From Dehalococcoides sp. JdFR-54 (GTDB lineage: Bacteria > Chloroflexota > Dehalococcoidia > JdFR-54), in assembly GCA_002011475.1 (NCBI GenBank), contig MTNP01000008.1:4037-68036 (forward strand): a DNA stretch of 64,000 nt, read 5' to 3'. The position numbers were made by a program, and so were the translations under genes. This document shows, in pieces, positions 11,725 to 32,087 of this stretch. Numbering within the stretch: the first letter of the stretch is position 1; the number at the start of each line of letters is the position of its first letter. Below the pieces are notes generated by a model. That model was not told the origin of the DNA. It made no database searches and saw only the letters and a list, made by a program, of their open reading frames with translations.

Positions 11725-11975
11725 AGGACATCCCTCCTCCGCCGACTTGGAATGGCTTGTCATCGGCTTTCGGTCTGGGCAAAAGTATAGAGGCTCACCG
11801 CCCCTGCGTCAAGTTTGTGCGTCGTCCTCCTCTATATTGTTGACAATCTTGCCTTCAATGGCTATACTCTTCATTGGCGTGCGTCCTATCCCCTGAATGC
11901 CGTTGGCGAGAAGGAAACCCTGACTGCGCCTTCAAAGGCGGAAAGTTTGTTGCACATCATAGGGAAGGAGGGGAA

Positions 11976-12899
11976 ATGAACAGGTCGAAATCGATCACCA
12001 TCATAGAGGTGGGGCCCCGGGATGGATTCCAGAACCTGGCCGATGAGATTCCCACTGCCGACAAGATCAGGATTGTGGACCTCCTAGCTGATACTGGTCT
12101 GAAGATGATCGAGACTTCATCCTTTGTTCATCCCAAATGGATACCCCAACTGAAGGATGCCGCCGAGGTATTTGCCGGCATCCATAAGAAGCCCGGCGTC
12201 TCCTATAGCGCCTTGATCCCCAATGAGAAGGGCCTGGACAGGGCCATCGAGTGTGGGGTGGGCGAGGTGGTGTTCGTGGTCGCTGCCAGCAATAGCCTGA
12301 ACCGCGCCAATCAGAACATGACCACGGAGGAATCATTGGCCTACCTGGAACCTATTGCCCAAAAGTCGAGACGACACGGCATTCGGGTGCGCGGCATTAT
12401 CGCTGCCTCCTTCGGCTGCTCCTACGAAGGAGAGGTTCCCATCAAGCAGGTCATCGACATCGGAAAGGAGCTGCGGCGGATGGGTGCCTTCGAGATCTCC
12501 CTGGCGGATTCCTTCGGGATGGCCCACCCTCGCCAGGTTAGGCAGGTGGTATCCCGGTTTCTGAGGGAAATAAACGATGTGAGCGTGGGCGTCCATTTCC
12601 ACGATACCAAGGGCACAGGCACGGCCAACGCTTACGCCGCCTTTGAGGCTGGGGTCAATGTCTTCGAGTCCTCCATCGCCGGCCTGGGGGGCTGTCCCTA
12701 TGCCTTAGGCGCCCCCGGAAATGTGGCCACAGAGAGCCTGGTTTACATGTTCCATAAGATGGGCATAGACTCCGGCATAGACCTAGACAAATTGTTGGCC
12801 TGTGCCGAAACGGTTAAGGAGATCGTGGGCTGGCCCCCCAAGACCTGGTCCTCCGAGAGAACCCGCTGGAACTGGAAGGAAGCCTCGGTGCCGGCGTAA
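11976..12899 (+). CDS. HMG-CoA-lyase-like (HMGL family) acyl-CoA lyase; could be a citramalyl-CoA-type lyase.
   Basis: ITIIEVGPRDGFQN (DRE-TIM metallolyase motif), HFHDTKGTG, GLGGCPYA. ATG at 11976 preceded by GGAAGGAGGGG. Confidence 0.8.
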   Translation: MNRSKSITIIEVGPRDGFQNLADEIPTADKIRIVDLLADTGLKMIETSSFVHPKWIPQLKDAAEVFAGIHKKPGVSYSALIPNEKGLDRAIECGVGEVVFVVAASNSLNRANQNMTTEESLAYLEPIAQKSRRHGIRVRGIIAASFGCSYEGEVPIKQVIDIGKELRRMGAFEISLADSFGMAHPRQVRQVVSRFLREINDVSVGVHFHDTKGTGTANAYAAFEAGVNVFESSIAGLGGCPYALGAPGNVATESLVYMFHKMGIDSGIDLDKLLACAETVKEIVGWPPKTWSSERTRWNWKEASVPA

Positions 12900-12931: not shown

Positions 12932-13816
12932 ATGCGAGCCCAAGTGACCCTCACCCCCACTGAGTCGAAGAAACTGATTGCCAAGGCGGTGGCGAGGATG
13001 GACATAGTGAAGCGGGCCTTGGCACAGGGAACAGTAGTTCTGCACCCCAGCAGTAGCACCTACTTCATCGTAGAAGAGATCACCAGGGATAAGCCCAAGA
13101 CCAATACCTGGGTCTGCGGCATCGTAGCCCCCAAGGGTACCTGCGTAGAGATGGGCTCTGCCATAGGCAGTCATTCCATAGTCTCAAAAGTGACCCAGGA
13201 GAGTGCCACTACCAATCCCAAGGCTTTCCGGCATTCCTGGGTCATTAGAGGCGGCGAAATGACCACGGGTATACCCCTCGGCTCCCTCCTGGAGGATTTA
13301 GGCCCTGAGGATGTCTATATAAAGGGCGTGAATGCCCTAGATACAGAGGGCAACGTCGGCGTCCTCATCGGCAATCCCATAGAGGGAGGCACTATCGGAC
13401 AGGTAATGGCTGCCTCCAGGGGAAAGGGATTTAACGTTATCTTCCCAGTGGGCCTGGAGAAGTTGATCCCCATTCCCGTCAAAGAGGCGGCTAAGGAGGC
13501 CCTGAGAACGAGCTATGAGTACGCCATGGGTATAGGCTGTGCCCTATTCCCCTGCCAAGGGATAACGGTGACCGAGCCCAAGGCCATCGAGATCCTCAGC
13601 GGCGCCACGGCCATCCCTATTTCGGCGGGCGGTTTAGGCGGGGCGGAGGGATCGGTAACGCTGGTCATTAGGGGGGATGAAGAGCAAGTTCGTAAGGCCA
13701 TTGATTATGCGGAGCAGTCCAAAGGGGCCAGATTACCCCAGGTGCGCACCTTTAATTGCCATCAGTGCGACGTCTCATTCTGTTACTTCCCGGTGGGCGA
13801 TAAGCCTTGGGCCTGA
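12932..13816 (+). CDS. Conserved hypothetical protein (294 aa) with a Cys-rich C-terminus (CHQCDVSFCYFP); no family recognised.
   Basis: Long ORF with consistent codon usage sitting inside the metabolic gene cluster; two internal Cys-containing loops (GTCVEMG, GIGCALFPCQG). Confidence 0.5.
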   Translation: MRAQVTLTPTESKKLIAKAVARMDIVKRALAQGTVVLHPSSSTYFIVEEITRDKPKTNTWVCGIVAPKGTCVEMGSAIGSHSIVSKVTQESATTNPKAFRHSWVIRGGEMTTGIPLGSLLEDLGPEDVYIKGVNALDTEGNVGVLIGNPIEGGTIGQVMAASRGKGFNVIFPVGLEKLIPIPVKEAAKEALRTSYEYAMGIGCALFPCQGITVTEPKAIEILSGATAIPISAGGLGGAEGSVTLVIRGDEEQVRKAIDYAEQSKGARLPQVRTFNCHQCDVSFCYFPVGDKPWA

Positions 13817-14017: not shown

Positions 14018-14947
14018 ATGCAGGAGCTTCTGGTGAGCAGGAAAACCCTTTATGACCTGATGTACAATTCCATCGTCATGGCAGCTACTATTATGCCCTC
14101 CGATGTCAAAGACGAAATCCTGAGCCTGATAGCCGAGGAGACCAACGAGATCGCCCGATTGCATCTGGAGTCTACCATGCGGAACTGCATTGAGCTGGGG
14201 GAGAAGGAGGACAGGCTACTTTGTCCCGATACCGGAACTCCCCTATATTATGTAAGGGTAGGCAATAACGTGAGGATAGAGGGAGGATTCTCCGCCCTAT
14301 ATGATGAGAGCAAGAAGGCGGTCAGCGATGCCACGGCCAATGCCAAGCTGAGACCTAACATGGTTCATCCCATAACCCGCAAGAGCACCGGGAACAATAT
14401 TGGCCACTACGTGCCCAGGGTGGAGATAAGGTTCGACCCGGATATAGATTATATGGACGTTATCGCCGTTCCCAAAGGAGGCGGCTCTGAGATCTTCGGC
14501 ACCTTTTATCGCGTGATGTACCCCGCCGACGGCAGAAAGGGGATAATGAAGTTCATCCTAGATTGTATCAAGGAGTCCACCTATGCCGGAAAGACCTGCC
14601 CGCCCAATGTGCTCGGCATCGGCATCGGGGGCACCGCGGACATCTGCATGAAGATAGCCAAGGAAGCGGCGGTGCTGCGACCCATCGGCAGTCGCCACCC
14701 CGACAAGGATATAGCTGACCTGGAGCTGGAAGTGGTGGAACTCATAAAAACGGCAGGGGCAGGGCCCATGGGGATGGGTGGTACCTCCGGGGTGCTGGAT
14801 GTACACATCGAATACGCGGTTACCCATACCGCCGGATTGCCCATAGCCTTTAATGCCCAGTGTGCCCTCAGCCGGCGGAAGGTGGCCCGCATTACCCCGG
14901 ACGGGCAAATCACCTACAGCGATTTCCCCCAATGGGAATACAGGTAA
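14018..14947 (+). CDS. Class I (Fe-S) fumarate hydratase / tartrate dehydratase alpha-type subunit; candidate mesaconase.
   Basis: N-terminal catalytic domain motifs of FumA/TtdA (CPDTGTP, KTCPPNVLGIGIGGT). Strong SD AAGGGGAGG. Confidence 0.85.
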   Translation: MQELLVSRKTLYDLMYNSIVMAATIMPSDVKDEILSLIAEETNEIARLHLESTMRNCIELGEKEDRLLCPDTGTPLYYVRVGNNVRIEGGFSALYDESKKAVSDATANAKLRPNMVHPITRKSTGNNIGHYVPRVEIRFDPDIDYMDVIAVPKGGGSEIFGTFYRVMYPADGRKGIMKFILDCIKESTYAGKTCPPNVLGIGIGGTADICMKIAKEAAVLRPIGSRHPDKDIADLELEVVELIKTAGAGPMGMGGTSGVLDVHIEYAVTHTAGLPIAFNAQCALSRRKVARITPDGQITYSDFPQWEYR

Positions 14948-14979: not shown

Positions 14980-15609
14980 TTGAACATGGCCACGAAAAGA
15001 CTGACCATCCCCCTCTCCCAAGAAGACGTCCGGGGGCTAAAGGTCGGCGACATTGTCTACTTGGATGGGCTCATCTACACGGCGAGGTCGCTGTTTCAGT
15101 TACAGGTCGTGGAGCAGGACATACTGCCGCCCATCGATTTCAGCAGACTGAATGTAATGGTTCATATAGGCCCGGTGATGAAGAAGGTGGGAGATAGCTG
15201 GATGCCAGTGAGCATGGCCCCCACGTCCAGCATTCGCTTTGAGAAGCTGGGGCCCACCATAATCAAGAAGCTGGGCGTCAGGGCCTTCATCGGCAAGACT
15301 ACCATGGGCGAGAAGACCATGCAGGCCATGAAAGAGTACGGCTGTGTCCACCTCTCTGTAGTTGGGGTGATGGGCAACATCTTCGCCAAACAGGTCAAGC
15401 GAGTGGTGGAGGTGCATAACCTGGAGTTGGGCATCCCTGAAGCCACCTGGGTGATGGAAGTGGAAAACGCCGGGCCCTTCATCGTGGATATTGATACTCA
15501 CGGCAACAACCTGTTCCACCAAGTAAATGCCGAGGTGGAGAAAAGATTCGACCAAGTCTATGAGAAGTATGGGCTCAAGGACTTTGCCTATACCAACGTG
15601 GGTGCCTGA
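14980..15609 (+). CDS. Class I fumarate hydratase / tartrate dehydratase beta-type subunit.
   Basis: 209 aa resembling the TtdB/FumA C-terminal domain; immediately downstream of the alpha subunit; SD AGGAGG. Confidence 0.8.
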   Translation: MNMATKRLTIPLSQEDVRGLKVGDIVYLDGLIYTARSLFQLQVVEQDILPPIDFSRLNVMVHIGPVMKKVGDSWMPVSMAPTSSIRFEKLGPTIIKKLGVRAFIGKTTMGEKTMQAMKEYGCVHLSVVGVMGNIFAKQVKRVVEVHNLELGIPEATWVMEVENAGPFIVDIDTHGNNLFHQVNAEVEKRFDQVYEKYGLKDFAYTNVGA

Positions 15610-15645: not shown

Positions 15646-15846
15646 ATGAGCTACAAGAAGCTGGGATTCGCCTTCTGTGCCAGGGTGACCCATGAGGCCC
15701 TGGGAGAGCTGATAGAGAGGTTCCATAAGTTTTCAGCACCGGTTTTCTCCGAAAGCCGAAGGCGTGAGATCATAGCCAAGGTGAGGTCGGTGGAGGCCGA
15801 GGCGGCGATCTCCAATTTGACCAGTTTGTTCGTAAAAGAAACCTGA
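15646..15846 (+). CDS. Small hypothetical protein (66 aa).
   Basis: ORF with cluster-like codon usage and no overlap; weak RBS. Confidence 0.25.
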   Translation: MSYKKLGFAFCARVTHEALGELIERFHKFSAPVFSESRRREIIAKVRSVEAEAAISNLTSLFVKET

Positions 15847-16352: not shown

Positions 16353-17621
16353 ATGGCTAGAATCTATGAGTATCAAGGAAAGCAATTGCTCAAAGCTGTA
16401 GGGATACCTGTTCCTCAGGGGGATGTGGCTGCCACCCCTGAAGAGGTCCGCAGGATTGCAGCAAGCATAGGAAAGCCTGTGGCCATCAAGGCTCAGATAT
16501 GGGTCACGGGGCGTTTCAAGGCGGGCGGCATAAGATTCGCCAGCGACTCTGAAGAGGCGGAGAAAATCGCTCAGGAATTCCTGGGAAGTAGGATCAAGGG
16601 CTTGCTTGTAGAACAGGTGCTCGTTGAAGAGAAACTGGATGTGGATCGTGAGTTCTATGTCGGCGTAATCGTGAACGACTCCTACAAGGTTAGGGCCCCG
16701 GTCTTGGTGTTCTGTAGCGAGGGTGGGGTGGATGTGGAGGAGGTGGCCGCCCGAAATCCGGAACGGGTAGCTACCCTGCCCGTCGATTACCTCAAGGGGG
16801 TGGGGCCCTCGGAGGCGCAAGAGCTAATAGCCAAGATGTCCCTAGAAGCTGCCCTGTCCTCTGAGCTGGTCAAGGTCATCTCCGGCCTCTACCAGGCTTT
16901 CCAGAAGTACGATGCCCGGGTGGCCGAGATCAACCCCCTGGTCTTCACCAAAGACGGCCGTATCTATGCAGCGGATTGCCGGTTCACCCTCGATGATAAC
17001 GCCCTCTTCCGCCACCCCGAGTTCGGCATTAAGGTCCCTCGGGACATGGATCGAGAGCCCACCGAACTCGAGGAGATCGCCTGGCAGATAGAAGAAACCG
17101 ACTACCGGGGAACGGGCTACTTCACTCAGCTAGTCCCCGAGGTCAAAGAGGAGGGCTACGTCGGCTTCCACGGCATAGGCGGGGGGGCAGCCATGCTGGC
17201 GGCTAGCGCCCTGCTAACCCGCGGGCTGAAGATAGCTGACTATGCAGATACCAGCGGCGACCCACCCGCCAGCAAGGTGTATAAGGTGATCAAATGCATC
17301 TTGGCACTGCCCGTCGATGGCTATGTATTGATGGGCTCGGTCCTCGCCAACCAAGAACAATGGCATCATGCCCATGCCATCGTTAAAGCCTTGAGGGAGG
17401 AGCTGAAGGATAGGCCCGGATTCCCCGTGCTGCTCCTCGTCGCCGGGAACAAGGAAAACGAATCCCACCAGATCATCAGAGATGGCCTGAAGGACCTGCC
17501 CATACGCTGGGAACTCTACGGGCGGGATTACATCTACAAGACCGATTTCATAGCCGACAGGGCGGCGGACTTGGTGAAGGCCTATCTGGAAGAGAAACAC
17601 CACAAAGCAGCAGGCAGGTGA
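16353..17621 (+). CDS. Succinyl-CoA-synthetase-like acid--CoA ligase (ADP-forming), beta subunit (ATP-grasp), copy 1.
   Basis: MARIYEYQGKQLLK...GIPVP N-terminus, ATP-grasp and C-terminal CoA-ligase domain, as in SucC / MtkA / CcsA. Confidence 0.8.
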   Translation: MARIYEYQGKQLLKAVGIPVPQGDVAATPEEVRRIAASIGKPVAIKAQIWVTGRFKAGGIRFASDSEEAEKIAQEFLGSRIKGLLVEQVLVEEKLDVDREFYVGVIVNDSYKVRAPVLVFCSEGGVDVEEVAARNPERVATLPVDYLKGVGPSEAQELIAKMSLEAALSSELVKVISGLYQAFQKYDARVAEINPLVFTKDGRIYAADCRFTLDDNALFRHPEFGIKVPRDMDREPTELEEIAWQIEETDYRGTGYFTQLVPEVKEEGYVGFHGIGGGAAMLAASALLTRGLKIADYADTSGDPPASKVYKVIKCILALPVDGYVLMGSVLANQEQWHHAHAIVKALREELKDRPGFPVLLLVAGNKENESHQIIRDGLKDLPIRWELYGRDYIYKTDFIADRAADLVKAYLEEKHHKAAGR

Positions 17622-17627
17622 ATCATC

Positions 17628-17966
17628 ATGGCCCAAGGAAAACTGGAGTTCGAGGCTCGAACCTCCAAGATCACCATCGATTACGACCGGTGTGAGCCGG
17701 CCACAAAGAACACCCCCAACCCCTCCTGCGGCTTCGCCTGTATTAAGGCCGACCGCTGCTACGGCCGAAATGTCCTGAAAATAGAGGGGAATAGACCTGT
17801 GCTTGCCAGTCCGAACCCGGAGGAGATAAGGCGTTTGTGCAACGAGTGTCTGGCCTGCGAATATGACTGCTGGCTCTATGGGGCGGGCTGTATCCACATC
17901 GAGATCCCCTTCCCCGACCTCGACGCCTATAAAGAGAAGGTCAGGACAGGAAAAAGAGGTGAGTAG
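17628..17966 (+). CDS. Small Cys-rich (ferredoxin-like) protein inserted between ligase beta and alpha genes.
   Basis: 112 aa, translationally coupled on both sides, with CNECLACEYDC and upstream C..C..C pattern. Confidence 0.5.
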   Translation: MAQGKLEFEARTSKITIDYDRCEPATKNTPNPSCGFACIKADRCYGRNVLKIEGNRPVLASPNPEEIRRLCNECLACEYDCWLYGAGCIHIEIPFPDLDAYKEKVRTGKRGE

Positions 17967-17968
17967 AG

Positions 17969-18868
17969 ATGGCCATAATCGTTGACAAGACCACCAGAGT
18001 GCTCGTCCAAGGTATCACGGGGCGATTCGGCGAATTCATAACCAGGAACATGCTGGAGGTCGGTACCAATGTAGTGGCCGGGGTGACCCCAGGGCGCGGG
18101 GGTCAGGCGGTATGGGGTATCCCCGTCTACAATACCGTTAGGGAGGCGATAGAAGAGCAGGGGCCCATAGATGCCAGCGTTGTCCTGGTACCTGGCCCAG
18201 ATGCTAAAAAGGCGGTGCTGGAGGCTTTCGACCAAGGGATAAAGACCCTGCTAATGGAGGTGGAGCGGGTCCCCCTGCACGACGCCTTGGAGGTAATAGC
18301 CCACGCCAAGAAAGCCGGCGCCCGATTGATCGGCCCCGGCTCCGCAGGGCTGGTCAGCCCCGGCAAGGCCTCCCTGGGCGTCTTCGGTTCCCCCGAGGAG
18401 TTAGCCCGGGTCGCCTTCATCCCGGGCCGGGTTGGGGTTATCTCGCGAAGCGGTGGGCAAACCTCCACCCTCTCCTGGAACGTCTGCCGCGCCGGGCTGG
18501 GCATAAGCACTGCCATCAACCTGGGCTCCGAGCCGGTCTTGGGCACCACCTTCGCCGAGCTTCTATGCCTGTTTCAAGCCGACGACGAGACCGACGGGGT
18601 AGCCTATTTCGGGGAGATCGGCACAGTCCAAGAAGAGGAGGCAGCGGAGGTTATCAAGGAGGGGAAGTATACCAAGCCGTTGGTAGCCTACGTCGCCGGC
18701 AGAGCCCTCCCCTCGGGGCTGCGCTTCTCCCACGCCAGCGCCATCATTGAGGGCGGCAGGGGCACAGCGGAGAGCAAGGTCAGGGCCCTGAAGGAGGCCG
18801 GAGTATACGTAGCCGATAGGCCGGAGGACATAGGCCCTACCTTAGCGCAGATCCTCAAACGCGACTAA
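17969..18868 (+). CDS. Succinyl-CoA-synthetase-like ligase alpha subunit (CoA-binding), copy 1.
   Basis: VLVQGITGRFG CoA-binding N-terminus and phosphohistidine loop FSHASAII (SucD MGHAGAII). Confidence 0.8.
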   Translation: MAIIVDKTTRVLVQGITGRFGEFITRNMLEVGTNVVAGVTPGRGGQAVWGIPVYNTVREAIEEQGPIDASVVLVPGPDAKKAVLEAFDQGIKTLLMEVERVPLHDALEVIAHAKKAGARLIGPGSAGLVSPGKASLGVFGSPEELARVAFIPGRVGVISRSGGQTSTLSWNVCRAGLGISTAINLGSEPVLGTTFAELLCLFQADDETDGVAYFGEIGTVQEEEAAEVIKEGKYTKPLVAYVAGRALPSGLRFSHASAIIEGGRGTAESKVRALKEAGVYVADRPEDIGPTLAQILKRD

Positions 18869-18881
18869 ATGGGAGATAGCC

Positions 18882-19838
18882 ATGGGCAGTATCCTGAGAA
18901 CAATGCTCTTCATTCCCGCCAATAGCTGGCGGATGATCCTGAGAGCCCGGGATGAGATGGAGGATGCCGTTATCCTGGACCTGGAGGACGCCGTGCCCAT
19001 CGGCGAAAAGGAGACCGCCAGGGTTCTGGCCAGGGATTGCATCCCCCTGCTCAAGGAAAGAGCCATAGACGTTTTCATCCGGGTGAATTCGCTGGCCACC
19101 GGTCTAACCAGGGAAGATTTGAACTACGTAGTAGTCGAGGGAGCGGACGGCATAGTGCTCCCCAAATCGGAATCGAAGCAGGACATCCTCGCCCTAGATG
19201 AGTTCTTGCAGGATGAAGAGAGGAAAAAGGGCTTGGAACCCAACAGCGTCGCTATTATGCCTTTGGTGGAGACTCCCAGGGGGGTTCTGAATGTGAGGGA
19301 CATCGTCTCCGCCAGCCCAAGGGTGATTGCCGTGGGCTTTGGCGCTGGGGATTTCCTCAGGGAGCTGGGGGAGGGGTTCGCCATCACCAGACTAACCCCG
19401 GAGGAGTACTTCCCTATGATTCTCTATGCCCGCTCCAGCATCTCCTTGGCCGCCAGCGCCGCCGGCATTCTGCCTATAGATACCCCCTTCTTCGGGCTGC
19501 TTACCGATACCGAGGGGCTAATCGCTGAGTCCGAGAAGGCCAAGCTTCTGGGATTCAAGGGGAAGATGCTCATTCACCCCCGCCACATCAACCCCGTGAA
19601 TGAGATCTTCTCGCCTTCCGAGGCAGACATCGACTTCGCTAGGCAAATGGTGCAGGCCTACAAGGAAGCCGAGGCCAGGGGGCTGGGGGCAGCCTCCTTC
19701 GGCGGCAGGATGATCGACTATGCCATGCATACCATGGGAATGGACCTCTTGGCCAAAGCCGAAGCCATAGCCGAAAAGAGCCAACGGAGGCTCCGAGTGT
19801 CATCCTCTGCGGGGGCAGCAACTGAGGAGACTTCTTAG
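18882..19838 (+). CDS. CitE-like (HpcH/HpaI family) acyl-CoA lyase, such as malyl-/beta-methylmalyl-/citramalyl-/citryl-CoA lyase.
   Basis: MLFIPAN...AVILDLEDAV N-terminal signature of the citrate lyase beta / malyl-CoA lyase family. Confidence 0.8.
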   Translation: MGSILRTMLFIPANSWRMILRARDEMEDAVILDLEDAVPIGEKETARVLARDCIPLLKERAIDVFIRVNSLATGLTREDLNYVVVEGADGIVLPKSESKQDILALDEFLQDEERKKGLEPNSVAIMPLVETPRGVLNVRDIVSASPRVIAVGFGAGDFLRELGEGFAITRLTPEEYFPMILYARSSISLAASAAGILPIDTPFFGLLTDTEGLIAESEKAKLLGFKGKMLIHPRHINPVNEIFSPSEADIDFARQMVQAYKEAEARGLGAASFGGRMIDYAMHTMGMDLLAKAEAIAEKSQRRLRVSSSAGAATEETS

Positions 19839-19855
19839 CCGGAACTCTGCCAGAA

Positions 19856-20998
19856 ATGGACCTATACGAGCACCAGGCCAAGGCAATCTTCCAGCAATAC
19901 GGGATACCTATCCCCCGAGGGCTGGTGGTCAGGGATGAGTCCTCCCTCCAGGCAGCGTTCGATGCCATCGGCCAAGAGAGCTTCGGAGTGCTCAAGGCCC
20001 AAGTGCTGACCGGGGGGCGGGGCAAGGCGGGGGGCATAAAAGTGGTGGACTCCCTGCCCCAGGCCCTGGAACTGCTCCCCAATATCCTGGGGATGCGGAT
20101 AAAGGAGTTCCCCGTAGATTCGCTCCTGGTGGAAGAAAGACTACACATAAAGAACGAATACTTCATGGGCCTCACCATAGACCCTGAGGCCTCGCTGCCT
20201 GTTCTGCTGCTGAGTCCTCGGGGCGGCATGGATATAGAGGAGGTCGCCAAAGATTACCCCTCGGCCCTGGGCAAATATGTAATACACCCCTCCCGCGGGC
20301 TACCTTCCTTTGCTGTGATGGACTTGGCCAGGGGACTGGGGTTTCCCCACAGGTTATGGGGGGCGCTAATAGACATCGCCGGCAAGCTCTATAAGGCCTT
20401 CTGCCAGGAAGAAGCCACCCTCGCCGAGCTCAACCCCCTGGCGGAGACGACGGGGGACAGCCTGATAGCCGTCGACAGCCGCCTCAGCGTCGATGACAAT
20501 GCCCTGTTCCGCCATCCCGAGCTCAACGAGCTGAAGAAGGGATTCAAGGAAATGTCCCTGAAGGACAAGGGGCTCGACTACATAGACCTGCGGACAGGAG
20601 AGGTGGGCCTGCTCTGCGTCGGCGCCGGCATGACCATGCTCACCATGGACCTGGTGGCACAAGCCGGCGCAAAGGCCCGGTGCTTCCTCGATGTCAGCCA
20701 CGGCATAAGTGCCGAGGGCTTGAGCACCGCCCTGGAACTATTGGCCTCAGAGCCAGGGATCAAGTGTGTCCTGGTAAACATGTTCGGCGGCCTGAGCCGG
20801 ATGGATGAAATAGCCACCTTCATGCTTCAAGCCATCGAGGCTATGGGGGGAAGGTTCCCCAAGCCTATACTGATTCGCCTCCAAGGGACAAACGCCGAGA
20901 TAGGCAGAAGGATGATGATGGAAGCCGGCTACGTCGTCTCTACTGAACTGGAAGAACTGATGGATAATTTCAAAGAACTGCTAAAGGGGACAAAGTGA
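19856..20998 (+). CDS. Succinyl-CoA-synthetase-like ligase beta subunit, copy 2.
   Basis: MDLYEHQAKAIFQQYGIP ATP-grasp N-terminus; 380 aa. Confidence 0.8.
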   Translation: MDLYEHQAKAIFQQYGIPIPRGLVVRDESSLQAAFDAIGQESFGVLKAQVLTGGRGKAGGIKVVDSLPQALELLPNILGMRIKEFPVDSLLVEERLHIKNEYFMGLTIDPEASLPVLLLSPRGGMDIEEVAKDYPSALGKYVIHPSRGLPSFAVMDLARGLGFPHRLWGALIDIAGKLYKAFCQEEATLAELNPLAETTGDSLIAVDSRLSVDDNALFRHPELNELKKGFKEMSLKDKGLDYIDLRTGEVGLLCVGAGMTMLTMDLVAQAGAKARCFLDVSHGISAEGLSTALELLASEPGIKCVLVNMFGGLSRMDEIATFMLQAIEAMGGRFPKPILIRLQGTNAEIGRRMMMEAGYVVSTELEELMDNFKELLKGTK

Positions 20999-21861
20999 GC
21001 ATCTTGGTAGACAAGAATACCCGTCTGGTGGTTCTGGGGATGACGGGAAGGCAAGGCTCCTTCCACACCAGGTTGATGCGGGAGGAGGGCACCAATATAG
21101 TGGCTGGAGTGGTGCCGGGCAAGGGGGGACAACAATTTGAGGGCATACCTATCTATGACACCATCCTACAGGCGAAACTGGCGCAGGATGCCAATGCCTG
21201 CGTCTTCTTCGTTCCTGCCTCGGCTGCTACCCAAGGTATACTGGATGCCATAGACGCCGGCATCGAGGTCGTCAGCGCCATTACCGACGGCATCCCCATG
21301 CACGATATGCTGTTGATCCAGGAGAAGTTGAAGGGAAGTCGCACCCGAGTGATAGGCCCTAACACCTCAGGGCTGATAACGCCGCGGCAGGCCAAGCTGG
21401 GCATAATGCCGTCTATGGCCTACAAGCCCGGGCCTGTGGGCGTCATGGCCAGAAGCGGCTCCCTATCCTATGAGGTGTGCTATGAGCTGAGCAAGGCTGG
21501 CCTGGGCCAAAGCACGGTGGTGGGGATAGGTGGGGACAGGATAGTAGGCACCACCTTTGCTGAGCTGGTGCCTCTATTTGAAGCCGACGCGGAAACCCGA
21601 GCCATCGTTATGGTGGGGGAGATCGGTGGGGTGGATGAGGAAAGGGCCGCCCTGACCATCAAGGAGCACTGCTCCAAACCAGTGGTGGCCATCATCGCCG
21701 GCTCTAGCGCGCCACCGGGCAAGGCCATGGGCCACGCCGGCGCCATCATCACTCAGGGCAAGGGGACCTTCGAGTCCAAAAGGGAGGCGCTTCAAGCAGC
21801 AGGGGTAAAGGTGGTCCGTTATCCCCGAGAGGTTGTCCAGGCCTTGAGGGAGGCATTCTGA
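20995..21861 (+). CDS. Succinyl-CoA-synthetase-like ligase alpha subunit, copy 2.
   Basis: [10 protein letters not shown] CoA-binding motif and canonical MGHAGAII phosphohistidine loop; overlaps beta copy 2 by 4 nt. Confidence 0.82.
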
Positions 21862-21886: not shown

Positions 21887-22315
21887 ATGGCAGTTAGGTT
21901 TCTATTGGCCAAAATAGGCATAGACGGGCATGACAGGGGGGCCAGGACGGTGGCCCTGGCCCTTAGAGATGCTGGCATGGAGGTTATCTATACCGGCCCC
22001 TGGCAGAGCATCGAGAGCGTAACCGAGACCGCTATTCAGGAGGATGTGGATATCATCGGCATCAGCACCCTGGGCGGGGATTATTTCCTCGTCCCCAAAC
22101 TACTGAACCGCATTAGGGAGAAGGGACTGAACATCCCCGTCATTGTGGGCGGCATCATACCGGCCCGTGTTGAAGAGGACCTGAGGAAGGCGGGGGTGGC
22201 AGCTATATTTCACCCCGGCGCCAGCATCGACGATATCATCAAGACCATCCATTCCCTGGTCAGCCAGCATGAGTCCGGTGAGGAGGTGGGAAATGCCAGA
22301 AGAAGCAAGCCTTGA
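21887..22315 (+). CDS. Methylmalonyl-CoA mutase family, B12-binding small subunit.
   Basis: KIGIDGHDRGA (DxHxxG base-off/His-on motif) and Rossmann-like B12 domain; 142 aa. Confidence 0.85.
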   Translation: MAVRFLLAKIGIDGHDRGARTVALALRDAGMEVIYTGPWQSIESVTETAIQEDVDIIGISTLGGDYFLVPKLLNRIREKGLNIPVIVGGIIPARVEEDLRKAGVAAIFHPGASIDDIIKTIHSLVSQHESGEEVGNARRSKP

Positions 22316-23990
22316 AGAAGCTATAATTCAGTGGCAGAGAGAGTATGAGGAATCCCTGCGTCGGCTGCCCCCACGACGGAAGCAGTTTGTCACCCAGTCG
22401 GGCATCCCGCTGAAGCCCCTCTATATCCCTGAGCCGACCTCGGCCGAGGCCGCCAATTACTTGGAGAAGCTGGGCTTGCCCGGCCAGTACCCCTTCACCA
22501 GGGGCGTCTACGCCTCGATGTATCGCAATCGGGTCTGGACCAAGAGGCTCCTCGCCGGCTACGGAGCCCCTGAGAACTTCAATGAGAGGGCCAAGCTCCT
22601 CCTGGAGGCCGGGGAGACGGGGCTCAACGCCCCGGCACCCAGCGTATCTATGCGAGGCTATGATACCGACCAGATGGCAGAGATGTACGATAAGGGCTAT
22701 GTCGGGCTATATGGCACGCCCCTAGATAGCGTGCTGGACACCGAGATAAGCCTGAAGGACATACCTATTGACCAGATCAGCGTCAACTACAGTGACCCCG
22801 GCCCCTTCGTCTCCATCGCCTTGCACTTCGCCGAGGCGCGACGGCGGGGCATCCCTTTGAACGATTTGAGGGGCAGCGCCAATCAGGCCGATTGCCTATC
22901 CCACTGGGTTAGCTCCCACCAGTTTATCATCTTCCCCCTGGAAGTGCATATGCGAATGACTGTGGACTTGATCACCTGGTGCACGCGCCATGCGCGCAAA
23001 TGGCACCCGTTGAGCATCATCGGCCAGCATCACTCCCAGAGCGGCGCCACCCCCCTCCAAGAGCTGGCCTTCACCTTGGCTGCGGGCATCGCCTACGTGG
23101 AGGAGTGTTTGAAGACCGGCATGAATATCGATGAGTTCGCTCCCCGCATCAGCGGTTTCTTCGATGGCCAGATAAACTTCCTGGAATTGGCCGCCAAGCT
23201 GCGGGCAGCTCGGCGCATGTGGGCCAAGACAATGAGGGAGAGATTCGGCGCCAAAGACCCTCGTTCCTGGCAACTGCCCATCCATGTGCAGACCTCGGGC
23301 GTAGAGCTCACCCGGCAGATGCCCCTGCTCAACATCGCCCGGGTAGCCCTTCAGGCGGTGGGGGCGGTGCTGGGCGGTACCCAGTCCCTTCATACCGATT
23401 CCTGGGATGAAGCCATTACCATACCCAAGCAGGAAGCGGCGCTAATAGCCCTGATGACCCAACACATCATAAGTGAGGAGTCAGGGGCGGCCGAGGTCAT
23501 CGACCCACTGGGTGGCTCCTACTACGTGGAGGCCCTGACCGATGAACTGGAAAAAAGGGCCTGGGAGATCATCGACACCATCGACTCCATGGGCGGGATG
23601 GTCAAGGCAGTTAGCTCGGGCTGGGTCTACAGGGAGATCACCCGGTCGATACGGGAGAGCCAGGCAGCCATAGATAAAAAGGAGAAAATCGTCGTTGGCG
23701 TGAACGAGTACACCCTGCCTGAGGAGGAGCAACAGCAGTTCGAGTCCTTCGAGGTCGACCCGGAGCTAGTAGACGGGCAAATTGAGCGCACCAAGCGACT
23801 GAGGCAGGAGCGCGACCAGGCCAAGGCCAAGAGTGCTCTCGAGGAACTTCGCGCCATCGCCGAAGACCCCGGAAAGGGCAACATCTTCGAAGGGGTCTTT
23901 AATGCAGTGCAGGCCTATTGCACCCGGGGCGAGATCGTCCACACGCTCAAGGAAGTGTTGGGCGAGGGAAGGCCTTACACCACTATCTGA
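22293..23990 (+). CDS. Methylmalonyl-CoA mutase family large (catalytic TIM-barrel) subunit, split type; substrate unknown.
   Basis: ~565 aa aligning with the MCM/IcmA substrate-binding domain (TRGVYASMYR...). Start at ATG 22293 preceded by GAGGAGGTG. Overlaps the small-subunit gene. Confidence 0.82.
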   Translation: MPEEASLEEAIIQWQREYEESLRRLPPRRKQFVTQSGIPLKPLYIPEPTSAEAANYLEKLGLPGQYPFTRGVYASMYRNRVWTKRLLAGYGAPENFNERAKLLLEAGETGLNAPAPSVSMRGYDTDQMAEMYDKGYVGLYGTPLDSVLDTEISLKDIPIDQISVNYSDPGPFVSIALHFAEARRRGIPLNDLRGSANQADCLSHWVSSHQFIIFPLEVHMRMTVDLITWCTRHARKWHPLSIIGQHHSQSGATPLQELAFTLAAGIAYVEECLKTGMNIDEFAPRISGFFDGQINFLELAAKLRAARRMWAKTMRERFGAKDPRSWQLPIHVQTSGVELTRQMPLLNIARVALQAVGAVLGGTQSLHTDSWDEAITIPKQEAALIALMTQHIISEESGAAEVIDPLGGSYYVEALTDELEKRAWEIIDTIDSMGGMVKAVSSGWVYREITRSIRESQAAIDKKEKIVVGVNEYTLPEEEQQQFESFEVDPELVDGQIERTKRLRQERDQAKAKSALEELRAIAEDPGKGNIFEGVFNAVQAYCTRGEIVHTLKEVLGEGRPYTTI

Positions 23991-27063: not shown

Positions 27064-28245
27064 ATGGCTAGCGAAAAGGAAGTCGTGGCCGAGGTTTCCG
27101 AAGGCGAAATCTCCCCCCGCACCCTCGATGAGTGGAAGGCGCGGCTGGGGATGTCACTGCGTATCTCTGCCATCTTCAATATGTATGTCTCCAGGGAGGC
27201 GATACGGAACTACGTCAACGGCATCGGGGACATTAACCCTCTCTACCGCGATCCCGACTACGCAGCCAAGACCCGCTACGGCAGGCTCATTGCCCCGCCC
27301 AATTGGCTCTACAGCGTCTTCCCCACCTGGGTGCTCCAGGGTCTGCCGGGGGTGCACGCCTTCCACTCCGGCAACGACTGGCGGTTCTACCTGCCCATCT
27401 ACATGGGCGACACCATCACCCCGGAGTGCATCTTCACCGGCTTCGAGGTGAAAGGCAGCCAGTTTGCTGGCCGCATGGTCATGGAATACCAGAGGGCCAA
27501 CTTCCGCAATCAGCGGGGGGAACTGGTAGCCAGCACCGACCTATGGCTAGTCCGCACCGAGCGGAGGGCCGCCCGAAAGGCGGGCAAATACCACGATCTG
27601 AAGCTCCCCCACCCCTGGACGCCCGAGGAACTGGAGAAGGTAGACCAGGAGATAATGGCCGAGGTAGTTCGAGGGGGCGAGGTGCGCTACTGGGAGGACA
27701 CCCAGGTAGGGGAGGAACTCCAGCCAGTGGTCAAGGGCCCCCTGGGCCTGACCGACATCATCGCCTACTGCGTGGGGGCAGCGCCCATCCAGATCGCGGC
27801 TCACCACGCCCAACTAAACCTGTACCGCGCCCACCCCGCCTGGGGCTTTCGCGACCCGGAGACCAACGCCTGGGAGCCTATCTACGCCGTCCACTACCTA
27901 AAGCCGGCGGCCAAGGCCGCCGGGGTCAATTACTGCTACGACGTGGGCGCTCAACGCCAGGGCTGGCTCATAGGCTTCCTGTGCAACTGGATCGGAGACG
28001 AGGGCTGGATCAAGAAAAATTACGCCGAGTATCGAAGGTTCGTTTACCTCTCCGACGTGGTGCGGTTTACGGGCAAGGTAACGGATAAATACATTGATGA
28101 GAACGGCGAGCACTGCGTCGATATCGAGACCCATGCCATAAACCAGCGAGGGGAAGACACCATGCCCGGCCACTCCACGGTCATCCTGCCCTCCCGGGAG
28201 AAGGGCACCTGGCCGGTAGCCAGGCGGATCAGGACGGACTACTAA
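27064..28245 (+). CDS. Double hot-dog MaoC-like acyl-CoA hydratase/dehydratase (mesaconyl-/itaconyl-CoA hydratase-like).
   Basis: 393 aa with two hot-dog halves; strong SD AAGGAGGTG. Confidence 0.65.
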   Translation: MASEKEVVAEVSEGEISPRTLDEWKARLGMSLRISAIFNMYVSREAIRNYVNGIGDINPLYRDPDYAAKTRYGRLIAPPNWLYSVFPTWVLQGLPGVHAFHSGNDWRFYLPIYMGDTITPECIFTGFEVKGSQFAGRMVMEYQRANFRNQRGELVASTDLWLVRTERRAARKAGKYHDLKLPHPWTPEELEKVDQEIMAEVVRGGEVRYWEDTQVGEELQPVVKGPLGLTDIIAYCVGAAPIQIAAHHAQLNLYRAHPAWGFRDPETNAWEPIYAVHYLKPAAKAAGVNYCYDVGAQRQGWLIGFLCNWIGDEGWIKKNYAEYRRFVYLSDVVRFTGKVTDKYIDENGEHCVDIETHAINQRGEDTMPGHSTVILPSREKGTWPVARRIRTDY

Positions 28246-28251: not shown

Positions 28252-28575
28252 CTATCTTATCGGCTTCCTCACGAAGACCTGCACACCCACCGAGAAAGGT
28301 ATGCTCTCCCGCAGGTCCTTGCTCAGGGTTATGGACTTCTTCTTATCACCGACCTCCTCCAGCCTCTCCACCTTGAACCTGAGCGTCCTGGGGCCGATCA
28401 CCTCCACCAAGCCCCCCACCTCAACCCCCAGCTCCGCCCGGGATTCAGCATCCAAACGGCACACCCCTTTCCCGAGGTCGGCATCCACATCCTCGATGAG
28501 GGTCAGGATTATCTCTTTGCCGTAGCTAGGCGCGCGATATTTGCTGCCGATCACCTGCTCTGAAGTTTCCATCAT
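28252..28575 (-). CDS. Small hypothetical protein with two AbrB/VAT-N-like cradle-loop barrel half-motifs.
   Basis: 107 aa; CRLDAESRAELGVEVGGLVEV and ITLSKDLRESIPFSVGVQVFV resemble swapped-hairpin barrel motifs; co-directional with tfrAB. Confidence 0.3.
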   Translation of the reverse strand: MMETSEQVIGSKYRAPSYGKEIILTLIEDVDADLGKGVCRLDAESRAELGVEVGGLVEVIGPRTLRFKVERLEEVGDKKKSITLSKDLRESIPFSVGVQVFVRKPIR

Positions 28576-30137
28576 ACCTCCAGTGCTCGGGCCACCAACT
28601 CGATGAGGTCCACAATCTCCATATCCTCCCTGCCCAGGGCCTGGGCCGCCTGCTTCAGCCTGGCTGAGTCGGCAGCGCTGGCGGTTACTATGGTCTCGGC
28701 GCCGCCCTCGGCGAGCTGCCTCAACCTGGCCTGGGCTATCTTGGAGTTAACCTCCTCGGAGGCCCCCAGGCCCCCGTCGCCCATGGTATTAGCCCCCCAA
28801 TAGTATTTTGGCTCCACCAAGCTGATGCCAGGGATACTAGCCAGAATCTCCCTAGGCTCCTCGACCATACCCAAGAACCTGGACAGAAAAGCTGGGTCGT
28901 GGAAGACCACCTTCCTGTTGCCCATGGCTTTCAGGGAGATCGCCTTCGACCTGATCTTCTCCAGAATCACCTCCAGCACAGTCCTGACCTGGATATTGGA
29001 GTCGCCGGCATATTTGGGGTAGAGCTCCCTAAAGGTGTAGGCGCAGGCAGGGCTAGGGGTTATTATCTCCTCCACCCCTGTCTCCTTAAGCAGCTTCTGC
29101 ACCTTTGCTGCCTTCTCTCTAAACTCCTTCTGGAAGCCGTAGAAGTAGAGGGGGGCGCCGCAGCACTGCTCCTCCTCGTAGAGATAGGAGAGACTACTCC
29201 CCGCCTTCTGGAGCAATTCCGCCGCCCGGGCCAGAACCGCCCTCCCCCCCTCCGTGGCCGAATACTCGCACGAGGCGAAGAACAGCGTCTTGCCGGACTT
29301 AGGGATTCCCAGGTCGGTAGCCCAGGAAGCCCGCTCCTTCCCACACACCCCGTAGAGGCTATCCGTTTCCAAGATGTTGCGGCGAATCTCCCTCACCTCT
29401 TCTGGAAGGACATCCTCCTCAACCGCCCGCTGTCTAGCCAGGATCATGCTCTCCGTTATCTCTATATCCTTGGGGCACGAGGTGGTGCAGGCCCGGCACA
29501 GGGTACAGTTATACAGCCCCATATCCACGGCCTGAGCCACCCTATCATACTCCTCCAAGGGATTGAACATGGCCCGTATGATGTTCGCCAAATACATGGG
29601 CCCGACGAACCTCGCCGGGCTCTCCAACCAAGGGGGGCAGATGGAATTGCAGCCGTGGCAGTCGGCGCAGATAGTCAAAGCCCTAGAGACGCCTATCGCC
29701 TCGGGCTTGGCCGGTATAAAGCCTATGGGTTTGCCCTCTCGCCCGTATTTGATCTTGCGAAACATCTCGGCCGTCTGCTGGGTTCTATCGATGACGAGAT
29801 CCCTGATCACCGGGTATCCCTTTAGAGGCTCCAGAACGTCTCCATCCTGGGCCAGCGCCCGACAGGCAAGGGCCGGAACGCCGTTTACCGAGATGGTGCA
29901 GGCACCGCAACCAGCCTCGCGGCATCCCCTCCGGAAGGCGATGTTGGCCCGGCTGTGCTTGTTTATGTAGGTTAGGGCCATGATGGCAGTAAGGCTGGGC
30001 AGCCACTCGGCTTCATAGGTTTCGTACCTGGGTTCCGCGTCTGTCTCCGGATTGAACCGGTATACGGTCAGTTTTATAGTCTTGGTCTCGGCGGTCGCGC
30101 TCACAATGGTCACCTCGTCTCCGCTTCTAGTCTGCAA
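28572..30137 (-). CDS. Fumarate reductase/succinate dehydrogenase Fe-S subunit fused to an HdrD-like CCG domain (TfrB / type-E SdhB-like).
   Basis: N-terminal 2Fe-2S ferredoxin (CREAGCGACTISVNG), 4Fe-4S motifs (CADCHGCNSICP, CTLCRACTTSCP), then two CCG-type Cys-rich repeats (QCCGAPLY; SPACAYTF). Confidence 0.78.
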   Translation of the reverse strand: MQTRSGDEVTIVSATAETKTIKLTVYRFNPETDAEPRYETYEAEWLPSLTAIMALTYINKHSRANIAFRRGCREAGCGACTISVNGVPALACRALAQDGDVLEPLKGYPVIRDLVIDRTQQTAEMFRKIKYGREGKPIGFIPAKPEAIGVSRALTICADCHGCNSICPPWLESPARFVGPMYLANIIRAMFNPLEEYDRVAQAVDMGLYNCTLCRACTTSCPKDIEITESMILARQRAVEEDVLPEEVREIRRNILETDSLYGVCGKERASWATDLGIPKSGKTLFFASCEYSATEGGRAVLARAAELLQKAGSSLSYLYEEEQCCGAPLYFYGFQKEFREKAAKVQKLLKETGVEEIITPSPACAYTFRELYPKYAGDSNIQVRTVLEVILEKIRSKAISLKAMGNRKVVFHDPAFLSRFLGMVEEPREILASIPGISLVEPKYYWGANTMGDGGLGASEEVNSKIAQARLRQLAEGGAETIVTASAADSARLKQAAQALGREDMEIVDLIELVARALEV

Positions 30138-32024: not shown

Positions 32025-32087
32025 GGGGACGACACCTAGAACGCCCTTCGTTGCACGTTTCGATGCGAAGTGGGATTGCCTGGGAAG

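Follow-up and report, generated by a model that had tools for sequence, protein, structure and literature searches.

What do two acid-CoA ligase gene pairs encode when a single acyl-CoA lyase gene lies between them? The question is raised by six genes at positions 16353–21861 of a 64,000-nucleotide stretch of DNA from Dehalococcoides sp. JdFR-54 (Chloroflexota; assembly GCA_002011475.1, contig MTNP01000008.1, positions 4,037 to 68,036), the whole of which is termed the window in what follows. An earlier reading of the sequence by itself (the original prediction) described a ligase–lyase–ligase arrangement, with a small cysteine-rich open reading frame (ORF) wedged between the beta and alpha genes of the first ligase. 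We find that the functional unit is a four-gene module, composed of the first ligase beta gene (beta1), the small Cys-rich protein, the first alpha gene (alpha1) and a CitE-like lyase. We are highly confident that the module and its three-component subunit architecture are as described here.

ADP-forming acid-CoA ligases of the succinyl-CoA synthetase (SCS)/ATP-citrate lyase (ACL) superfamily are textbook two-subunit enzymes, and we know of no member with a metal-cluster subunit; a conserved third subunit with predicted iron–sulphur (Fe–S) clusters is therefore unexpected. Full-text literature searches returned no description of such a ligase–lyase module or of an Fe–S-bearing SCS/ACL-type ligase. 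The finding proper is a widespread, uncharacterised module of anaerobes that pairs a three-component ligase, with predicted Fe–S clusters, with a CitE-type lyase.

GENE LAYOUT

An ORF check of the window places all six genes in the same direction:

16353–17621, +, beta1, ATP-grasp subunit of an atypical ADP-forming acid-CoA ligase (422 amino acids, aa), with an SCS-like N-terminal domain and a C-terminal acid-binding domain like that of citryl-CoA synthetase (CCS) and ACL
17628–17966, +, small Cys-rich ferredoxin-like protein (112 aa)
17969–18868, +, alpha1, CoA-binding phosphohistidine subunit (299 aa), loop RFSHASA
18882–19838, +, CitE/HpcH-family acyl-CoA lyase (318 aa), gene four of the conserved module
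19856–20998, +, beta2, canonical SucC-like subunit (380 aa), adjoining the module but not a member of it
20995–21861, +, alpha2, canonical SucD-like subunit (288 aa) with MGHAGAII, its start overlapping the beta2 stop by 4 nucleotides (nt)

Both beta chains match Pfam ATP-grasp_2, both alpha chains CoA_binding and Ligase_CoA, and the lyase HpcH_HpaI. Alpha1 carries RFSHASAIIEGG (RFSHASAII) and alpha2 MGHAGAII, while the small ORF carries CNECLACEYDC. The six ORFs of the original prediction and the motifs it quoted are borne out, with coordinates, motifs and Pfam/NCBIfam domains in agreement, and so is its view that the small ORF is translationally coupled between beta and alpha. Six nt separate the beta1 TGA from the small-ORF ATG and 2 nt separate the small-ORF stop from the alpha1 ATG, and both starts have Shine–Dalgarno sites (AGGTGA, overlapping the beta1 stop, and GAGGTGAG, upstream of the alpha1 ATG).

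CONSERVATION OF THE MODULE

The scan for conservation took a single genome for each GTDB species and used the small protein as its seed. The scan returned 58 loci, all in metagenome-assembled genomes (MAGs), whose bacterial carriers belong to Desulfobacterota/Deltaproteobacteria, Chloroflexota, Syntrophomonadaceae and Myxococcota, and whose archaeal carriers belong to Bathyarchaeia, Thermoproteota, Nezhaarchaeota, Heimdallarchaeota and Methanomethylicia. The gene order beta1–small–alpha1–CitE is essentially universal over these loci, with the CitE-like gene directly after alpha1 in about 50 of the 58. Locus look-ups in Nezhaarchaeota, Deltaproteobacteria and Dehalococcoidia found a beta gene with Citrate_bind, the small gene and alpha, then an HpcH/CitE lyase or, in one lineage, a lyase of the isocitrate lyase (ICL)/phosphoenolpyruvate (PEP)-mutase type. 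Since the scan was seeded by the small protein, extra look-ups were started from beta1 homologues; in both of these the small ORF lay directly downstream of beta1, and one locus held the complete module. A beta1 that seemed to stand without partners (L065) was rejected as an exception, because an assembly gap cuts its small ORF after 50 codons.

Conservation of the small ORF at syntenic loci, the check proposed with the original prediction, is borne out by 88 homologues (49–72% identity) with the beta–small–alpha order kept; the small ORF is thus not a chance ORF. None of the homologues has a Pfam domain or a functional name, and an exhaustive profile search, run against 1.84 billion representative proteins, brought up just 88 relatives, the family being small and self-contained. 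The window copy is identical to a hypothetical protein of a Dehalococcoidia MAG.

Beta1 and the small protein form a single polypeptide of ~540–560 aa in 9 loci (2 Desulfobacteraceae, 7 archaeal), and further beta–small fusions occur among database representative proteins. By the Rosetta-stone argument, these natural fusions indicate that the small protein acts as a domain at the C-terminus of beta, and together with its conservation they uphold the earlier proposal of a ferredoxin-like, previously undescribed component. Across loci the beta–small gap runs from an overlap of tens of nt to about +55 nt, and is usually <25 nt. In the window the two ORFs share a frame, parted by TGA and two codons; stop-codon read-through of beta1 into the small ORF was considered and rejected, the same frame not being enriched among unfused pairs (7/56).

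A distant clade of beta–ferredoxin fusions (P0273, P0274, P0277, P0305) has the beta motifs TSGNPPASK and GSG(V/F)ASQEQ(F/I)H and a fully canonical eight-Cys ferredoxin domain, so that the predicted Fe–S-bearing ligase family is broader than the beta1 clade.

At one locus (L005/L006, GCA_040960625.1) a gene of the PEP-mutase/isocitrate-lyase family stands in place of the CitE-like gene, which shows that more than one type of lyase can partner the ligase. Its flanks hold three PrpD paralogues, DUF1847 and an enoate reductase of the old yellow enzyme type, a set that recalls methylcitrate or dimethylmalate chemistry.

THE SMALL CYS-RICH SUBUNIT

The cysteines of the family fall into two predicted four-Cys sites. 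Those of site A are nearly invariant, with C22 and C34 in 88/88 sequences and C38 and C81 in 87/88. Site B is made up of C74, C77 and C88 with either C42 (49 sequences) or C71 (about 26), and of positions 42 and 71 the one without Cys has Asp; in 10/88 sequences all four site-B cysteines are lost together (D/S/S/W/A). The swap of ligand between C42 and C71 and the concerted loss of site B are the behaviour of real metal ligands. In the window copy, predicted site A is C22/C34/C38/C81 and predicted site B is C71/C74/C77/C88, with C44 as an extra Cys. Motif 2 is canonical (C71xxC74xxC77xxxC81) and motif 1 degenerate (C22x11C34xxxC38), and the way motif 2 is split, C81 to site A and the rest to site B, fits the cross-ligation rule of 2x[4Fe-4S] ferredoxins. 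More distant family members have canonical CxxCx4CxxxC and CxxCxxCxxxC motifs, and come near threshold across both of them (Fer4_9, 26.1 versus 27 bits; Fer4_10, 24.5 versus 25.5 bits). The AlphaFold2 model of the small protein has a confident compact fold, with a predicted local distance difference test (pLDDT) score of 89.2. From these patterns we conclude that the small protein is probably a diverged, degenerate 2x[4Fe-4S] (dicluster) ferredoxin domain, the window copy holding both predicted sites; that it binds Fe–S clusters is likely.

As to its role, we favour a structural or assembly function, possibly one of docking the CitE lyase so that the labile CoA ester would be channelled. This is favoured because the subunit is present even at loci that have no redox enzyme nearby, because one predicted cluster is dispensable in a subclade, and because its attachment to the C-terminus of beta corresponds in position to the beta–alpha linker of ACLY. 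A redox or oxygen gate on ligase activity is possible, and direct catalysis or electron transfer by the subunit is not favoured on this evidence.

THE FIRST LIGASE

Classification of the ligase and lyase rests on the cut-offs of curated hidden Markov models (NCBIfam equivalogs) and on PDB match scores. By these, the first pair stands apart from the known enzymes that it resembles. Beta1 scores 245.6 bits on the SucC equivalog (cut-off 370) and 171.3 on MtkA (cut-off 604), and alpha1 scores 295.7 on SucD (cut-off 336). Beta1 matches Pfam ATP-grasp_2 (197 bits) and Citrate_bind (PF16114, 30.9 bits against a cut-off of 26.8), with no Pfam Ligase_CoA match. Over its full length the best PDB match is Thermus SCS-beta (232 bits), ahead of CcsA (149 bits). 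Its C-terminal domain alone best matches CcsA (6hxq_B, E 6.8e-8) and then Chlorobium AclB (6hxj_A, E 5.3e-6), ahead of any SCS, and has GGGA, ANYA-x-SGDP and G-S-x-x-A-N in common with them.

The acid pocket differs from that of SCS and, at one segment, from that of ACL. The N-G-A-G...F-G-G-I loop of SCS beta binds succinate; in beta1 it is replaced by GIGGGA...GSVLANQEQWHH, while beta2 has Ligase_CoA and FGGL. In the HMMER alignment to 6hxq_B, beta1 (LLLVAGNKE) has a three-residue gap opposite the 'rrn' of CcsA VRRNGP. We take this 'rrn', or VRR(N/G)GP, segment to be the citrate-binding Arg379 segment of ACLY, and its absence argues against a tricarboxylate substrate, with its third carboxylate.

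The catalytic apparatus is retained. The catalytic Glu of AEINPL is kept in beta1 (E196, N198 and P199 do not vary across the beta alignment), as are the family-invariant motifs YADTSGDP, ANQEQWH and WELYGR. The 61 alpha1 homologues all have RFSHASA with the catalytic His, the flanking Gly of GHAGA being Ser; they also have an invariant SRSGG (SRSGGQT in nearly all; family form SRSGGQT(S/T)T), (H/N)xGSEP, and the Glu of GEIG/AEIG. The departure of the FSHASA loop from canonical GHAGA, remarked on in the original prediction, is therefore a family signature under selection and not decay. With a phosphorylatable His, the alpha Glu and the beta Glu, the predicted beta1/alpha1 enzyme has the mechanistic hallmarks of the SCS/ACL superfamily, of which it is, judged by these motifs and scores, a distinct lineage with an ACL-like acid pocket. 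Such a ligase would be expected to thioesterify the CH2-COOH arm of an acid of the form R-C(OH)(COOH)-CH2-COOH, and a CoA ester on that arm matches the substrate need of a CitE-type lyase.

THE LYASE

The fourth gene product has the TIM-barrel HpcH_HpaI domain (148.9 bits, cut-off 25). It lies below the cut-offs of both the CitE equivalog (201.6 versus 443.4 bits) and the RipC/Ccl citramalyl-CoA-lyase model (156.3 versus 375), scores 68 bits on a haloarchaeal malyl-CoA-lyase model, and is roughly equidistant from Deinococcus radiodurans CitE, malyl-CoA lyases (5ugr, 4l9y), human CLYBL and Yersinia RipC. Its substrate is not fixed by sequence alone. Pfam scans of most large window ORFs found no CitD, and CitF only as a sub-threshold match (26.6 versus 27 bits) on a protein of the acetyl-CoA hydrolase/transferase family.

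The original prediction likened the locus to MtkAB–Mcl and CcsAB–Ccl. That likeness holds in that pair 1 and the CitE-like gene form a conserved, analogous module. By the curated cut-offs the pair is not an orthologue of SucCD, MtkAB or CcsAB, and a Ccl-type partner is contradicted by the CitE/HpcH fold of the lyase, which is not the citrate-synthase-like fold of Ccl.

THE SECOND PAIR

Beta2 has ATP-grasp_2 and Ligase_CoA and falls just below the SucC equivalog cut-off (341.5 versus 370), while alpha2 passes that of SucD (377.7 versus 336). Recent duplication of one pair from the other is rejected, since beta1 and beta2 are 29% and alpha1 and alpha2 45% identical. In the other 58+ loci, beta2/alpha2 is never a neighbour of the module. 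The ligase–lyase–ligase layout is thus a real gene arrangement, but not a functional unit: with a divergent second pair that is adjacent nowhere else, it is a juxtaposition in one long operon-like string and not a conserved device. Beta2/alpha2 is predicted to be a separate, ordinary SucCD-like enzyme. Immediately downstream of it come acyl-CoA-mutase and CoA-transferase genes, among them:

21887–23990, B12-dependent acyl-CoA mutase, closest to 2-hydroxyisobutyryl-CoA mutase HcmA (4r3u, 458 bits, versus 360 for human methylmalonyl-CoA mutase, MCM)

This mutase scores 443 bits on the MCM equivalog (cut-off 876). It has KRLLAGYG for MCM RQYAGF and WVSSHQF for MCM MVRNTY, so that Leu and Ser-Ser-His replace the Tyr and Arg that bind the substrate carboxylate. 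A classical methylmalonyl-CoA pathway made up of beta2/alpha2 and the mutase was rejected on these grounds, the mutase being HcmA-like and without the MCM Tyr and Arg.

GENOMIC NEIGHBOURHOOD

Genes flanking the module in the 58 loci were clustered, with the following counts:

MmgE/PrpD-family proteins, often 2–3 paralogues: 42–44 loci
Cyclic-amidohydrolase-like proteins: 15 loci
GntR/UTRA regulators: 14 loci
Liv-type ABC transporter components: 12–13 loci (tripartite ATP-independent periplasmic, TRAP, and major facilitator superfamily transporters occur too)
Sdh/Frd-type flavoproteins: 11–12 loci
TfrB-like Fe–S/CCG subunits: 7–8 loci
Class-I fumarase alpha/beta pairs: 7–8 loci
TcuA-like flavoproteins: 7 loci

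Genes for an acyl-CoA dehydrogenase (ACAD), an electron-transfer flavoprotein (ETF) and a family-III CoA-transferase flank the module at two loci (L003, L043). By predicted gene content, the bacterial neighbourhoods are typical of regulated operons that break down an imported organic acid. Many deltaproteobacterial loci have a recurring set, whose order runs from an EthD-like 109-aa protein through a hydantoinase-like amidohydrolase, GntR/UTRA and PrpD to the module, and on through a further PrpD and a TcuA-like flavoprotein to a Liv-type ABC transporter; examples are:

L018, 4368–8634 and 12270–15125, deltaproteobacterial recurring gene set
L066, 4659–8662, the same set

The amidohydrolase neighbour hints that the imported substrate may be an amide or cyclic imide of the acid.

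Other features of the window are:

2885–6002, TRAP transporter upstream of the glycyl-radical enzyme
6076–6492 and 6588–8537, glycyl-radical enzyme (pyruvate formate-lyase-like plus Gly_radical) split in two ORFs (profile positions 3–103 and 153–647)
8628–9542, radical S-adenosylmethionine activase of the glycyl-radical enzyme
11874–12899, protein of the 3-hydroxy-3-methylglutaryl-CoA (HMG-CoA)-lyase subfamily (363 bits versus cut-off 246), adjoining a family-III CoA-transferase on the opposite strand
12932–13816, 294-aa ORF ending CHQCDVSFC, no Pfam match
14018–14947, +, class-I fumarase-type hydrolyase, alpha (Fumerase; Fumerase_C in the pair; ttdA_fumA_fumB subfamily), just upstream of the module
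14980–15609, +, beta chain of the same hydrolyase
15646–15846, 66-aa ORF between fumB and a cupin gene, no Pfam match
27064–28245, MaoC-like double hot-dog hydratase, in the same gene string as the module
28252–31887, −, Sdh/Frd-type flavoprotein, TfrB-like subunit (Fer2_3 + Fer4 + CCG) and ~110-aa CDC48_N-like protein (Pfam)
32070–38839, two tandem MutS/MutE glutamate (methylaspartate) mutase pairs, a PrpD gene, then mutL, about 12 kb downstream of alpha2
35912–37291, +, MmgE/PrpD-family protein (MmgE_PrpD_N and _C), between the second glutamate-mutase pair and mutL
56231–61272, second acid-catabolism block, two HGD-D (2-hydroxyacyl-CoA dehydratase) subunits, then two family-III CoA-transferases

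The FumAB pair is a candidate mesaconase feeding the ligase. The Sdh/TfrB/CDC48_N-like trio, also found at another locus (L009, 3646–7305), has a flavoprotein that recurs near the module in 12 loci and a TfrB-like part that recurs in 8; it resembles thiol:fumarate reductase, and may be a (methyl)succinate dehydrogenase or mesaconate reductase. Both MutE chains pass the methylaspartate-mutase equivalog cut-off (415 and 397 versus 390). The PrpD-like protein stands among the glutamate-mutase genes where a deaminase is expected, and it is a speculation that it might be a non-orthologous one. The PrpD proteins that neighbour the module score 44–83 bits on 2-methylcitrate-dehydratase/aconitase models, whose cut-offs are 458–950. 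The (R)-citramalyl-CoA lyase of Chloroflexus belongs to the HMG-CoA-lyase family, and the island may handle both citramalyl-CoA enantiomers.

Glutamate mutase, MaoC, HMG-CoA lyase, acyl-CoA mutase and glycyl-radical enzyme genes adjoin the module in none of the other loci, and are therefore window-specific context only. The 294-aa and 66-aa ORFs likewise recur beside it in no other locus. The split of the glycyl-radical enzyme may come from a frameshift, a pseudogene or an assembly error. Near the second acid-catabolism block lie a LarA-like protein, a short-chain dehydrogenase/reductase, an IlvD-like dehydratase and more TRAP components. Taken as a whole, the 64-kb window resembles an island of organic-acid catabolism.

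PROPOSED FUNCTION

We propose that 16353–19838 encodes a two-step ATP-dependent acid-cleavage system that would convert a citramalate-like acid to acetyl-CoA and pyruvate, a proposal whose chances we hold to be evenly balanced. In the first step the ligase, made up of beta1, the ferredoxin-like Fe–S subunit and alpha1, would activate a 2-hydroxy-dicarboxylate at its CH2-COOH end by way of the alpha1 phosphohistidine, at the cost of one ATP. The substrate would most likely be (S)-citramalate and the product citramalyl-CoA; citramalate itself is a tentative assignment, by guilt by association, that we lean slightly towards doubting. In the second step the CitE-type lyase would split the hydroxyacyl-CoA into acetyl-CoA and a 2-oxoacid (pyruvate in the case of citramalate). 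The small protein would be a detachable C-terminal beta domain with one universal four-Cys cluster and a second in most members, including the window copy, and its part would be structural, redox-gating or lyase-docking, not chemistry. We infer that the module runs in the cleavage direction.

The neighbours supply candidate feeders. Class-I fumarases act as mesaconases making (S)-citramalate, which is then cleaved either via a CoA-transferase and (S)-citramalyl-CoA lyase or via a CitDEF-type citramalate lyase (PMC4682846), and a PrpD-family methylsuccinate isomerase occurs in itaconate clusters (PMC12290011). The PrpD, class-I fumarase and Sdh/Tfr-like neighbours, with the glutamate mutase of the window, point to branched C5-dicarboxylates. 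The module would be fed by hydro-lyases or isomerases, either of the PrpD family or a class-I fumarase working as a mesaconase, and by Sdh/Tfr-like or other flavoproteins acting on such acids. In the window, glutamate or imported C5 acids would be converted to mesaconate, then to (S)-citramalate (by FumAB here, and by PrpD-like proteins elsewhere), to citramalyl-CoA and to acetyl-CoA plus pyruvate, with the ligase standing in for CitD and CitF of the clostridial citramalate lyase.

Several observations weigh against this proposal or parts of it. The substrate is assigned by guilt by association, and for the lyase the CitE model gives a better score (201.6 bits) than does that of RipC/Ccl citramalyl-CoA lyase (156.3). 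Only in this window does glutamate mutase accompany the module, and no methylaspartate ammonia-lyase was found in the Pfam scans of most large window ORFs. The neighbours vary, some loci having amidohydrolases or TcuA-like flavoproteins and one (L005) the ICL/PEP-mutase-type lyase, and every carrier is an uncultured MAG. The window small protein has no Pfam Fer4 match even at E <= 1, nor any other Pfam or NCBIfam match; a Foldseek search with its model gave no significant PDB match, the top matches being polyferredoxin-type at E >= 0.49; and its four-Cys sites could bind Zn instead of Fe–S. In a model of a fused beta–small protein (P0123) the beta part is confident, but the small domain has pLDDT <50, because only four fused sequences covered it, and gives no usable docking.

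Other acids would suit some of the same evidence. Were the substrate citrate, the module would be a third type of ATP-dependent citrate cleavage, with beta1, the ferredoxin and alpha1 as citryl-CoA synthetase and the CitE-like protein as citryl-CoA lyase; the part of the PrpD-like proteins would be to interconvert citrate with cis-aconitate, and that of the TcuA-like flavoproteins to bring in tricarballylate. Citryl-CoA cleavage is the reaction of CitE within citrate lyase, CitE is the best NCBIfam match of the lyase, beta1 passes the Pfam Citrate_bind cut-off with a C-terminal domain that best matches CcsA and AclB, and PrpD-family and TcuA-like FAD proteins are neighbours in 42–44 and 7 loci. 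We think citrate unlikely all the same, given the three-residue deletion in beta1 at the CcsA 'rrn' of VRRNGP and the low scores of the PrpD neighbours on 2-methylcitrate-dehydratase/aconitase models (44–83 bits against 458–950). The bacterial context is moreover catabolic (GntR regulators, uptake systems), with no other genes of the reductive tricarboxylic acid (TCA) cycle adjacent, and the FumAB and Sdh-like neighbours would be left unexplained. Those neighbours are just what a malate-CoA ligase and malyl-CoA lyase like MtkAB–Mcl would call for, in a route from succinate to fumarate (by the Sdh/Tfr-like proteins), on to malate (by FumAB) and malyl-CoA, and then to acetyl-CoA and glyoxylate. 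Malyl-CoA lyases (5ugr, 4l9y) are among the best solved relatives of the lyase, and malyl-CoA formation by SCS-type enzymes is reported in a preprint (bioRxiv 10.1101/2024.09.25.614871). Yet beta1 reaches 171 bits on MtkA (cut-off 604), the haloarchaeal malyl-CoA-lyase model gives only 68 bits, no glyoxylate-consuming genes lie nearby, the dominant PrpD neighbours go unexplained, and the glutamate mutase, MaoC-like and HMG-CoA-lyase-like genes of the window fit methyl-branched C5 acids better, which makes malate quite improbable.

The ligase might instead activate an unhydrated or saturated C5 acid (itaconate, mesaconate or methylsuccinate), a separate hydratase then making citramalyl-CoA for the CitE-like lyase. 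Mammalian SCS activates itaconate, and the PrpD family includes cis-aconitate decarboxylase. It also includes methylsuccinate isomerase (PMC12290011); the gene string of the module contains a MaoC-like double hot-dog protein (27064–28245), and ACAD, ETF and family-III CoA-transferase genes lie beside the module at L003 and L043. This too has a low probability in our view: the conserved core has no enoyl-CoA hydratase, MaoC-like genes lie beside the module in 0 other loci, the acid-binding domain resembles the hydroxy-acid-binding ACL/CCS type and not SCS, and the conserved partners (FumAB, PrpD-like) are free-acid hydratases. One could finally deny the third subunit altogether, taking the small protein as a Zn-ribbon-like or vestigial operon passenger and the pair as a divergent succinyl-CoA synthetase, in keeping with the want of Pfam, NCBIfam and significant Foldseek matches for the window small protein and with Thermus SCS-beta as the best full-length PDB match of beta1 (232 bits). 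This is very improbable and already disfavoured: the small protein is 49–72% identical across bacterial and archaeal phyla, is fused to beta in bacteria and archaea alike, has Cys ligands that swap or vanish in concert and has a confident compact predicted fold, while beta1 has neither the Ligase_CoA domain nor the FGGI succinate loop and the module is paired with a lyase that has no use for succinyl-CoA.

Beyond the two-step cleavage of a citramalate-like acid that we prefer, a bolder version can be drawn, which we regard as doubtful. The module would then be an ancient, anaerobe-specific, convergent counterpart of ATP-citrate lyase, a ligase–ferredoxin–CitE supercomplex in which the Fe–S subunit tethers the lyase or acts as a redox gate, spending ATP to cleave citramalate or a 2-hydroxy acid akin to it.

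COMPARISON WITH KNOWN SYSTEMS

In CcsAB/Ccl (Hydrogenobacter) and AclAB/ACLY, as proposed for the module, cleavage takes two steps: an ADP-forming ligase of the SCS superfamily makes a hydroxyacyl-CoA, from which a lyase frees acetyl-CoA. The 'Citrate_bind' type of beta C-terminal domain is common to CcsAB, ACL and the module, and the order beta–insert–alpha parallels the beta-like part, linker and alpha-like part of ACLY. The module differs in its lyase, a CitE/HpcH TIM-barrel where theirs has the citrate-synthase fold (Ccl or the citrate synthase homology, CSH, domain), in its extra ferredoxin-like subunit with predicted Fe–S clusters, in a beta1 without the RR segment of VRRNGP, in a phosphohistidine loop of SHASA against GHAGA, and in its catabolic context.

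MtkAB/Mcl of the serine cycle likewise has an SCS-like ligase and a CitE-family lyase encoded together, but MtkAB has no Fe–S subunit and beta1 is far below the MtkA cut-off (171 versus 604 bits); the hosts of the module are strict anaerobes, and its neighbours suggest methyl-branched substrates. With SucCD, beta1/alpha1 has in common the alpha/beta architecture, ATP-grasp, the CoA-binding domain, the catalytic His and both catalytic Glu, and differs in scoring below the curated cut-offs, in lacking Ligase_CoA and the FGGI loop in beta1, in the extra subunit and in the obligate pairing with a lyase.

The clostridial citramalate lyase CitDEF would have the same place in metabolism, after glutamate mutase and mesaconase, and its CitE-type beta subunit cleaves the C–C bond (PMC4682846). 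The module has no CitD acyl carrier protein or CitF transferase, and would use ATP and free CoA, giving acetyl-CoA and not acetate. The CoA-transferase itaconate route (PMC12290011) also has citramalyl-CoA cleaved by a CitE-family lyase, with associated PrpD-family and acyl-CoA-dehydrogenase genes; unlike it, the module would activate the acid by an ATP-dependent ligase with a predicted Fe–S subunit, and it occurs in anaerobes and archaea.

IMPLICATIONS

The components of the module are at present annotated in their source genomes as 'succinyl-CoA synthetase beta subunit', 'ATP-grasp domain-containing protein' or 'hypothetical protein'. Labels such as 'succinyl-CoA synthetase' and 'citrate lyase beta' can yield false calls of the TCA or reductive TCA cycle (CCS/CCL), a risk that concerns metabolic reconstructions of Bathyarchaeia, Nezhaarchaeota, Dehalococcoidia and Desulfobacterota MAGs. 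A predicted Fe–S subunit, sometimes fused to beta, together with an altered phosphohistidine loop, also raises the question of redox control or complex assembly in such ligases.

If citramalate is the substrate, the module would add, to CoA-transferase plus lyase and to CitDEF, a third way of turning citramalate into acetyl-CoA and pyruvate, and may be the means by which uncultured anaerobes degrade branched C5-dicarboxylates, glutamate-derived or environmental. Should the doubtful supercomplex version hold, it would give the SCS/ACL superfamily its first Fe–S member and would mark a route, so far unrecognised, of C5-dicarboxylate or glutamate carbon to acetyl-CoA and pyruvate, common to Asgard, TACK and Bathyarchaeia archaea and to Desulfobacterota and Chloroflexota; operating backwards, as a condensing system, it would recover the energy of the thioester in the form of ATP.

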